Translations under genes and position numbers: made by a program | The notes under the pieces: generated by a model | Database searches by the model: none | What the model saw: the letters and a program-made list of their open reading frames with translations, nothing else | What the model was told of the DNA's origin: nothing | NCBI RefSeq assembly: GCF_003334785.1 | Contig: NZ_QOWV01000015.1 | Origin: Escherichia coli | Lineage (GTDB): Bacteria > Pseudomonadota > Gammaproteobacteria > Enterobacterales > Enterobacteriaceae | DNA length: 64,000 bases | Reading direction: 5' to 3' (one strand) | Shown here: positions 19,069-62,391 of the stretch, one piece after another | How positions within the stretch are numbered: the first letter of the stretch is position 1 | Layout: each line of letters opens with the position of its first letter

Positions 19069-19095
19069 TTCTCCCGATTTCCTCAATTGAAATGA

Positions 19096-19125
19096 ACCCG
19101 ATGATCTGCGCATCGGGTTTTTTAT
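19096..19125 (+). terminator. Rho-independent terminator after cheW
   Basis: Hairpin cccgatg-atctgcg-catcggg followed by a T-run. Confidence 0.7.
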
Positions 19126-19154
19126 TTCAATTTCGCGGCGGGTGGCATCAGCAA

Positions 19155-19181
19155 TAAAGTTTCCCCCCTTCTTGCCGATAA
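19155..19181 (+). promoter_or_regulatory. Sigma-28 (FliA) promoter of the tar-tap-cheRBYZ operon
   Basis: TAAAGTTT-N11-GCCGATAA, an exact consensus match, 32 bp upstream of the tar start. Confidence 0.85.
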
Positions 19182-25519: not shown

Positions 25520-25600
25520 GCCTGATGTGGCGTGACCACGTCATATCAGGCGGTCTGATAAGGCGATGACGCCGCATCCGACAAACGCACACTATGCTTG
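25520..25600. repeat. REP (repetitive extragenic palindrome) element(s)
   Basis: gcctgatgtggcgtga...ataaggcgatgacgccgcatccgaca is a typical REP palindrome. Confidence 0.6.
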
Positions 25601-32629: not shown

Positions 32630-33385
<756 letters not shown>

Positions 33386-33772
33386 TTTTTACCGTTGCAT
33401 CATGTCGCCCAATATGATGCTTGCTCGTACCAGGCCCCTGCAATTTCAACAGGGGCCTTTTTTTATCCCTGAGCAGTATAAAAAACGAACGATAACCGTG
33501 ATCTGTTGAGCGGGTGACAGTGCGCATAGCGTTGTGCTAAAAATATTTTTTATATTCACATTGATTATGGGATTTAAATTGCTAAAACTGATAAATATAT
33601 ATTCTAAATAGCAACTGGGTTATTCCTTAGCAATTAATGATTACATTGTAATAAATCATATTCTTTATCGATTATTTCAGGCAGTGTTGTGCCGAGTTAT
33701 GCAAGCGGTTAATTCGTTGTGTATTTAATTATACAATGATTTCGGTGTTCTGGAATTTATTTAGAGGAATCT

Positions 33773-37375: not shown

Positions 37376-37482
37376 GCTGCCTGATGCGCTATGCTTATCA
37401 GGCCTACATAGTCCCTGCAATATATTGAATTAGCAAGGTTTTGTAGGCCGGATAAGGCGTTCACGCCGCATCCGGCAGTAAT
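37376..37482. repeat. REP/BIME elements downstream of torZ
   Basis: gcctgatgcgctatgcttatcaggcctaca and gtaggccggataaggcgttcacgccgcatccggca are canonical REP palindromes. Confidence 0.7.
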
Positions 37483-46545: not shown

Positions 46546-47559
<1,014 letters not shown>

Positions 47560-47561
47560 GT

Positions 47562-47885
47562 CGGATTGGTCGCTCGCACCGCATCCGAAATTGGCAGTGT
47601 GCCTGATGCGACGCTATTCGCGTCTTATCCGGCCTACCAGAGATAGCGAACCGTAGCTCGGATAAGGCGCTCGCGACGCATCCGACATTGGCAGTGTGCC
47701 TGATGCGACGCTATTCGCGTCTTATCCGGCCTACGAGAGATAGCGAACCGTAGGTCAGATAAGGCGCTCGCACCGCATCCGACATTGGCAGTGTGCCTGA
47801 TGCGACGCTGTTCGCGTCTTATCAGGCCAGCCAGAGATAGCGAACCGTAGGTCGGATAAGGCGCTCGCGCCGCATCCGACAAATG
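47562..47885. repeat. BIME/REP cluster (about three tandem ~100-bp units)
   Basis: Repeated units of cgcatccgacattggcagtgtgcctgatgcgacgct(a/g)ttcgcgtcttatc(c/a)ggcc...agagatagcgaaccgtagg with small variations. Confidence 0.85.
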
Positions 47886-47899
47886 TGTTCAGCGATAGA

Positions 47900-48685
47900 T
47901 TAGCTGGCCTGCTTTTTCATCATACTGAGAATAAATAACAGTGCCGCACATAGCACCACCGACGGACCCGCCGGCGTATCGTAAACCGCGGAAAAGGTTA
48001 AACCGCCAGTCACTGCCACCATCCCCACCAAAACAGCGACACCAGCCATCTGTTCCGGCGTGCGGGCAAAGCGACGCGCAGTAGCAGCAGGAATAATCAG
48101 CAACGAAGTAATAATCAACGCACCGACAAATTTCATCGCTACACCAATCGTCAATGCCGTCACCAGCATCAACAACAATTTCACTCGCTGTAATTTCACA
48201 CCATCAACAAACGCCAGATCCGGGCTTATCGTCATTGACAGCAAATTGCGCCATTGCCAGAACAAAATAGCCACCACGATGACCACGCCAATCGCAATAG
48301 AGATGAGATCTTCTGGCGTCACTGCCAGCAAATCACCGAACAGGTAAGCCATCAAATCAACACGAATATTAGACATCAGACTCACGACCACCAGGCCCAG
48401 CGACAGGGCACTGTGCGCCATAATCCCTAATAACGTGTCGATCGCCAGCTGTGGACGCTTCTCCAGCCATACCAGACCGCCCGCCAGCAGCAGCGTAACG
48501 GCAATCACCGCATAGAATGGATTCACGTCCAGCAACAAACCAAACGCGACGCCAAGTAATGAGGCATGAGCCAGCGTATCACCGAAATAAGACATACGAC
48601 GCCAGACTACAAACGAACCCAGCGGACCCGCGGCACAGGCGAGCATGATCCCGGCTAACCAACCGGGAAATAATAATTCAATCAT
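47900..48685 (-). CDS. znuB: Zinc ABC transporter permease ZnuB
   Basis: 261-aa polytopic membrane ORF recognised as ZnuB. Confidence 0.95.
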
Positions 48686-52877: not shown

Positions 52878-53007
52878 AAAAGCCTCTCGCGAGGAGAGGC
52901 CTTCGCCTGATGATAAGTTCAAGTTTGCTTCAGAATATTCGAAATCTGTTGAACTATCATTGAACTGTAGGCCGGATGTGGCGTTTTCGCCGCATCCGGC
53001 AACGTAC

Positions 53008-62065: not shown

Positions 62066-62391
62066 TGGCTTCTGATAATTCGATTGACCGTTGGCGGATG
62101 CGGCGCGAGTGCCTTGTCCGCCCCAGAACGCACCACAATCGTAGGCCTGAGAAGACGCAACAGCGTCGCATCGGGCAATCAGCATCAAACAATGCCACTC
62201 AAAACGACAAACTACTTTCACCTAAAATACCCTTATCACCTGATATACAGTAAATACCTTACCTGGCGCGAATTTCTTTGAATAACGGCCTACCGCCCCG
62301 CTTATTTGCGCATCTTTTGTCTCGATATACATTTTCTGACATCCTCATCCGCTATGCTACAGGCACTAAAAATGGTTATTGAGGAGCAAAT

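Follow-up and report, generated by a model that had tools for sequence, protein, structure and literature searches.

Three classes of BIME are distinguished by their palindromic units and their linkers (Ton-Hoang 2012, PMC3333891). BIME-1 combines a z1 and a y unit with a long L linker that contains an IHF site, and is present as a single copy. BIME-2 is assembled from z2 and y units joined by a short linker and is repeated several times in tandem, the number of copies varying from one strain to another. Atypical BIMEs, the third class, are chimeras. The same paper suggests that TnpA-REP might drive the recombination and amplification of BIMEs. Cleavage by gyrase has been mapped by Topo-seq (Sutormin 2019, PMC6379681), with the result that y units are cut far more often than z2 units, and that inhibition of transcription raises the BIME-2 signal. 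Table DS3 of that study lists the K-12 orthologue of the array that is our subject here, as 'BIMEs2 1947056-1947182, 126 bp, znuB>-<ruvB'. It has two cleavage sites with ciprofloxacin, two with rifampicin plus ciprofloxacin, two with oxolinic acid and none with microcin.

A second described system that resembles our array is REP325 of K-12, the model for BIME-2 and the element from which naRNA4 derives, lying in yjdM-yjdN between two co-directional genes of one operon. It has six units (12 palindromes), the palindromes being called Y and Z2 by Qian 2015 (PMC4550694). According to a 2026 preprint by Harris, REP325 terminates transcription in a partly Rho-dependent manner and stabilises mRNA, while the presence of REPs between convergent genes is associated with higher expression of both.

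The window that we have analyzed is a stretch of 64,000 nucleotides of Escherichia coli DNA. Within it ruvB (46549-47559, + strand) and znuB (47900-48685, - strand) converge on a gap of 340 bases between their stop codons. Both genes appear in the list of ORFs and are annotated by RefSeq in strain 13C1065T, which is 100% identical here, and ruvB was also read in the sequence. A megablast search of 5426 complete E. coli genomes likewise gave ruvB and znuB as the flanking ORFs, with the 851-bp query matching strain 13C1065T at 100% and BL21-AI at 99.3% identity. By Tandem Repeats Finder the region is a single array (47554-47881) with a period of 97, 3.4 copies, 91% matches, 0% indels and a score of 551, and a repeat search returns three in-register copies spaced at 97 + 97 bp with 90-91% identity. 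Seven palindromic units (PU1 to PU7) span 47556-47880, taking up 325 of the 340 bases, and this is the only multi-unit REP array in the window. An earlier note on this DNA had described about three near-identical units of roughly 100 bp at 47562-47885. Its tandem periodicity is real and its boundaries lie within 8 bp of those of Tandem Repeats Finder; the size and number of the units also stand, with 'near-identical' slightly generous for repeats of about 90% identity. Its assignment of the array as REP/BIME is borne out by alignment of the units to the Y and Z2 palindromes.

The array is found at the same position in all 10 of the other unsplit alleles that we examined. Since the same element occupies the same place in each of these, it is not a chance feature. 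A literature search on ruvB, znuB and REP together gave nothing relevant, the ruvB-znuB locus is absent from the RepRanger supplements, and in the supplements of the Harris preprint znuB is found in the expression table only.

REP units of the Y and Z2 types are imperfect palindromes, some 35-38 nt in length, that have mismatches within the stem and a GTAG/CTAC tail that is conserved. The seven units comprise four of Y type (34 nt) and three of Z2 type (38 nt), with the Z2 units in the opposite orientation. They are arranged in the order Y'-Z2-Y-Z2-Y-Z2-Y, with alternating orientation and the GTAG tails facing each other across a 15-nt linker. PU1 (47556-47589, + strand, GTAAGTCGGATTGGTCGCTCGCACCGCATCCGAA) is a degenerate Y-type unit, in which the tail is GTAA instead of the usual GTAG and provides the stop codon of ruvB, the TAA at 47557-47559 lying inside the unit. 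The overlap with ruvB is confined to the last 4 nt of the gene (G plus the TAA stop), and all the other units are extragenic, between ruvB and znuB. In every allele examined PU1 follows the ruvB stop. PU2 (47600-47637, - strand, TGCCTGATGCGACGCTATTCGCGTCTTATCCGGCCTAC in + strand letters with the GTAG tail on the - strand) is of Z2 type, and the same sequence recurs as PU4 (47697-47734, - strand). Between and beyond these lie PU3 (47653-47686, + strand, GTAGCTCGG...GACGCATCCGAC), a Y-type unit with stem mismatches, and PU5 (47750-47783, + strand, beginning GTAGGTCAGATAAGG), also of Y type. The last Z2-type unit, PU6 (47794-47831, - strand), has the best stem and a mutated tail, CTAC having become CAGC. 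PU7 (47847-47880, + strand, GTAGGTCGGATAAGGCGCTCGCGCCGCATCCGAC) is an intact Y-type unit, which on the znuB transcript comes downstream of the znuB stop codon, after a unique 19-nt spacer (AAATGTGTTCAGCGATAGA, 47881-47899).

The linkers are constant throughout the array. The head-to-head linker is 10 nt in length and is ATTGGCAGTG at each of its three positions (47590-47599, 47687-47696 and 47784-47793). The tail-to-tail linker is 15 nt in length, with the form (C/G)AGAGATAGCGAACC; it is CAGAGATAGCGAACC at 47638-47652 and 47832-47846, and GAGAGATAGCGAACC at 47735-47749. We considered a CRISPR-like reading of the repeats and rejected it, because the 'spacers' are constant.

The region folds strongly. 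For 47540-47910 the predicted structures of both strands are far more stable than those of shuffled sequence (z = -5.5 and -6.8), not one of 100 shuffles being as good. Individual hairpin energies across the seven units range from -5.8 to -21.8 kcal/mol, with arms that are 77-86% complementary. The most stable are PU6 (-21.3 and -21.8 kcal/mol for + and - strand RNA respectively) and PU7 (-17.4 and -19.2), with PU2 at -16.6 and -17.1 kcal/mol. PU1 (-10.8 and -10.9), PU3 (-9.3 and -11.0) and PU5 (-5.8 and -15.1) are decayed; these three of the four Y-type units have stem mismatches and form weak + strand RNA hairpins of -5.8 to -10.8 kcal/mol. From this, constraint on the extra units would seem to have been relaxed. 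On the strand that is sense for znuB, PU5 forms a far more stable hairpin than on the other. No inverted repeats were returned with the default 9-nt seed, which is an artefact of the seed; a 6-nt seed recovers the palindromes together with pairing between adjacent units. A scan of the ruvB-znuB gap for promoters and terminators found neither a promoter-like nor an intrinsic-terminator-like site, and at the 3' end of either transcript the REP hairpins are therefore the sole strong structures.

We have compared the units with those of REP325 using blastn-short, taking the Y and Z2 palindromes of the K-12 element as references. The Z units are 92-94% identical to REP325 Z2 (92% for PU2), and PU7 is 87.5% identical to REP325 Y, with PU1, PU3 and PU5 more diverged. 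The Y stem is GTCGG...CCGAC in place of the GCCGG...CCGGC of REP325, so that both sides have changed and pairing is kept. The two arrays have in common the alternation of Y and Z2, a short head-to-head linker, a constant and longer tail-to-tail linker, and a match to the same Rfam model. They differ in tandem period (100 bp for REP325, 97 bp here) and in both linkers, which in REP325 are 11 and 17 nt long (ACGGTGCCGAC and AAATTCCCGCACCCTCC) compared with the 10 and 15 nt of ATTGGCAGTG and CAGAGATAGCGAACC here. They differ too in setting, since our array lies between convergent genes. Inverted REP pairs with GTAG tails are also a point of likeness to REPIN / RAYT (TnpA-REP) systems. The gain and loss of units in register that we describe below is explained equally well by homologous recombination as by TnpA-REP.

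The Y and long Z2 palindromes, together with the short linkers, lead us to read the array as BIME-2, a call for which the linkers were judged by length and against REP325 rather than against the canonical S/s/l/r motif sequences, and for which 'atypical BIME' is the alternative label. As a consequence gyrase is relevant to the array, and IHF is not. Overall the element is very probably a BIME-2-type array situated where ruvAB and znuCB, as convergent operons, share their 3' ends; in it, Y units would engage gyrase, hairpins would block exonucleases and unequal recombination would change the number of units.

The closest described relative is the orthologue in K-12 MG1655, where the gap is 146 bp (NC_000913 1944200-1944345) and contains three units, Y'-Z2-Y, compared with seven here. 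The position, the flanking genes, the overlap of PU1 with the ruvB stop and the family of linkers are all the same, and the last Y unit and 19-nt spacer of K-12 are identical to those of the window. Elsewhere the two differ at a few points, such as the loop TGTTC in K-12 that is TATTC here. The allele of the window thus corresponds to the K-12 array with two additional 97-bp units, each of the form Y-linker-Z2-linker.

The range of alleles was sampled with a query of the flanks only (300 bp from each of ruvB and znuB), taking 60 genomes spread evenly down the ranking of the 5426 complete E. coli genomes. A gap of 144-151 bp was found in 42 of the 60, one of 243-245 bp in four, and the 340-bp gap of the window in five. 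Two further genomes have a 216-bp gap containing a remnant of an IS621 end, and in the remaining seven the flanks were not joined, the gap being split by a large insertion. A separate sample of 40 gave a similar picture, and neither sample (100 genomes in total) included an allele longer than 340 bp. The 340-bp allele is also present in laboratory strains of the B lineage. The statement of the earlier note that the repeat number varies between strains is therefore confirmed, with gaps of approximately 146, 243-245 and 340 bp.

Eleven alleles were read through in full. The differences in length between them amount to whole units of 97 bp, in register, and recombinant units can be recognized. 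One of the 243-bp alleles resembles the 340-bp allele of NDM1 type from which one unit has been removed by recombination between units 1 and 2, and the K-12 allele resembles the same NDM1-type allele with two units removed. The 340-bp allele is carried on flanks that are between 97.2% and 100% identical to those of the window, and the NDM1 version differs at around ten positions. Judged from this divergence in sequence, the long allele is not recent. The most divergent strain sampled, S1-SRL-01-C (L013:401-544), has flanks that are 93.5% identical and three units in the gap, which suggests from the sequences that three units might be the ancestral state. The units of S1-SRL-01-C are strongly diverged in sequence, and its PU1 is a near-perfect palindrome (GTCGGATAAGGC…GCCTTATCCGAC), compared with the degenerate PU1 of the other alleles that were read.

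In 636 of the 5426 genomes the two flanks could not be joined. We examined three of these split genomes from the two samples, and found IS1397 in two and IS621 in one. The families to which these elements belong target REPs (PMC1525189). IS1397, of the IS3 family, lies in the loop of a Z2 unit in SA186 (L005:1007-2657) and in the ST131 strain 5392 (L014:2901-4551); the junctions are …GACGCTGT|TGAACTGCACCCC…GGGGTTCAGTTCA|TGTTCGTC…. A count of IS1397 junctions gave no clean figure, both halves of the junction being repeated elsewhere in the genome. IS621, of the IS110 family, lies at the tail of a Z2 unit in RMDEC465 (L015:1176-2601; …ATCAGGCCT|IS|AC…), with junctions TTATCAGGCCT|TGTATTATCC… and …ACAGTATCT|ACCAAAAG. 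The Z2 tails of the window, which are ATCCGGCCTAC in two units and ATCAGGCCAGC in one, are one or two bases removed from this junction. An ST131-type ruvB flank was present in six of the seven split genomes sampled, and for this reason the split ruvB-znuB gap looks like a clonal marker.

In the 216-bp allele of UTI89 (L004:861-1076) the last Y unit is broken by a 78-nt piece that is inverted and 97% identical to the left end of IS621. It looks like the relic of an earlier IS621 insertion, to judge by this similarity. The 60-nt core of the piece occurs in 2233 of the 5426 genomes, at a median of 5 places and a maximum of 27, and most of these occurrences are expected to be copies of IS621.

What might the array do? 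For the seven-unit allele all of the functional steps are taken by analogy or from the K-12 orthologue. At the level of DNA, and from the cleavage observed in K-12, the Y units would be preferred sites of gyrase binding and cleavage, independent of transcription. At the level of RNA, by comparison with other REPs including REP325, the hairpins would end both convergent transcripts, where they would impede 3'-to-5' exonucleases and reduce the read-through of each into the gene that faces it. The mRNA stabilisation that the earlier note had raised for such arrays is plausible for this one on the same analogy. Lastly, the whole-unit and in-register differences between alleles point to changes in length that could occur when the 97-bp units recombine unequally or slip. 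By the same analogies the two extra units probably only alter the dose of the gyrase and hairpin effects, and they may be neutral.

It is possible, if rather less likely than a functional array, that the element or at least its two extra units have no function, being selfish or neutral REP DNA that is resized by unequal recombination and tolerated. The decay of the internal Y units is consistent with this, as are the loss of the CTAC tail from PU6 and the restriction of some 70% of the sampled genomes to three units. Insertions of IS1397 and IS621 are evidently tolerated, with about 12% of genomes carrying a large insertion in the gap. However, the three-unit core is present in every unsplit allele examined, including the lineage with flanks of only 93.5% identity. 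Moreover the pairing of the Y stem has been preserved despite changes on both of its sides, and cleavage by gyrase has been measured at the K-12 orthologue.

A further proposal, that would add to the main explanation, is that the PU1 hairpin at the ruvB stop stalls terminating ribosomes and lowers the level of RuvB via trans-translation. Ribosomes are reported to stall where a REP lies no more than 15 nt from a stop codon, according to the summary of Liang, Rudd and Deutscher 2015 that is given in PMC12306157. PU1 falls within this distance, since the ruvB TAA lies within the unit at a spacing of 0 nt, while PU7 is 19 nt from the znuB stop. The placing of PU1 at the stop in all the alleles is consistent with the proposal, as is the near-perfect palindrome that it forms in the divergent S1-SRL-01-C. 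Yet in the allele of the window PU1 is degenerate, with several mismatches in its stem and a hairpin of just -10.8 kcal/mol, and we regard stalling by PU1 as unlikely.

More speculative, and slightly less probable again, is the idea that the number of units (three, five or seven) acts as a heritable and strain-specific dial, and that the REP-derived stop codon could couple the output of RuvB to the stability of the PU1 hairpin. If this were true, more Y units would bring more gyrase between the converging operons, and more hairpins would alter the protection of mRNA 3' ends and the extent of read-through. The SOS-regulated ruvAB and the zinc-regulated znuCB operons would then differ in expression between strains of B type and of K-12 type, with promoters and coding sequences unchanged.

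Turning from what the array does to what it is, the units could be read as genes for small RNAs like naRNA4, which would bind HU and condense the nucleoid. The naRNA4 model of Rfam, RF02564, does match all the units on the + strand, and one match, covering PU5 and PU6 (47753-47828, +), scores 61.1 bits and is the sole one above the gathering score of 59.5. But the other three + strand matches fall below this threshold at 37.5-52 bits, and the gap lacks a promoter-like site. The model itself is the 77-nt Y-linker-Z2 unit of REP325, and thus describes BIME-2 units generally. In addition, the Harris preprint, the authors of which include an author of the original naRNA4 report, finds that REP325/naRNA4 gives no measurable compaction of the nucleoid, its action being local to the operon to which it belongs. 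Such small-RNA genes would seem very improbable here. Since the model is a BIME-2 unit from REP325, the match confirms the family of the repeat, and not a small-RNA gene.

Still less probable is a reading as an IHF-binding BIME-1 (RIP/RIB) element. The array does resemble BIME-1, RIP and RIB elements in placing inverted REP palindromes at the 3' ends of genes, and the case for IHF comes from the general statement that some BIMEs bind this protein. A true BIME-1 is, however, a single-copy z1/y pair with a short Z1 unit and a long L linker bearing an IHF site, and all these features are lacking here, where the Z units belong to the long Z2 type, the units are multiple and linkers of 10 and 15 nt join them. 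The structure of the array already refutes this reading. Neither in the gap nor in the whole 64-kb window is there an exact match to the IHF consensus WATCAANNNNTTR. Thus where the earlier note offered IHF or gyrase as the protein partner, gyrase is upheld by the cleavage mapped in the K-12 orthologue, but IHF is not, given the short linkers and the lack of a consensus site.

Finally, there is virtually no likelihood that a protein is encoded by the 82-codon minus-strand ORF at 47634-47882, which is included in the mechanical listing of ORFs but is an artefact of the repeats. It lies entirely within them, and as their period of 97 cannot be divided by 3 the reading frame changes from one unit to the next. 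The ORF also begins with TTG, gives a low-complexity and arginine-rich translation, corresponds to no annotated RefSeq gene in the identical genome and would be impossible in the 146-bp alleles.

Several other features of the window were observed. A BIME-1-like pair is located at 37378-37477 between two convergent ORFs, and in it a linker of 35 nt (ATAGTCCCTGCAATATATTGAATTAGCAAGGTTTT) joins a short unit of Z1 type to a Y unit. The sole match in a blastn-short search with a 30-nt Z1-type consensus query is at 37378-37407. Rfam ES036 (CssrF) matches 37400-37442 on the - strand, which makes this 'sRNA' family largely equivalent to the linker of BIME-1. The zero exact matches to the IHF consensus over the whole 64 kb compare with 2.9 expected from shuffles, a minor difference that is probably not significant. 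Isolated single REP units are present at 25557-25580 (Y), 52967-53001 (Y) and 62141-62177 (Z2). Two Rfam RNAs were found with scores well above threshold, MicL sRNA at 33157-33464 (+, 370 bits) and C0465 RNA at 19088-19165 (-, 112 bits), both of them unrelated to the array.

The correct label for the ruvB-znuB element is consequently a BIME-2 REP array, and not a small-RNA gene, a coding ORF or an IHF site. Automated annotation would mislabel the RF02564 match, and the finding has little importance beyond correct annotation. Earlier work has already described the array and its type, the polymorphism in copy number and the cutting of the K-12 orthologue by gyrase. The gap has been used repeatedly by two different insertion sequences that target REPs. 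Its polymorphism in length, with alleles of 146, 243 and 340 bp and others interrupted by an IS element, could serve as a simple typing marker. The array is a tidy example of the known behaviour of BIME-2 elements, in its gain and loss of units in register and in the cleavage of its K-12 orthologue by gyrase.
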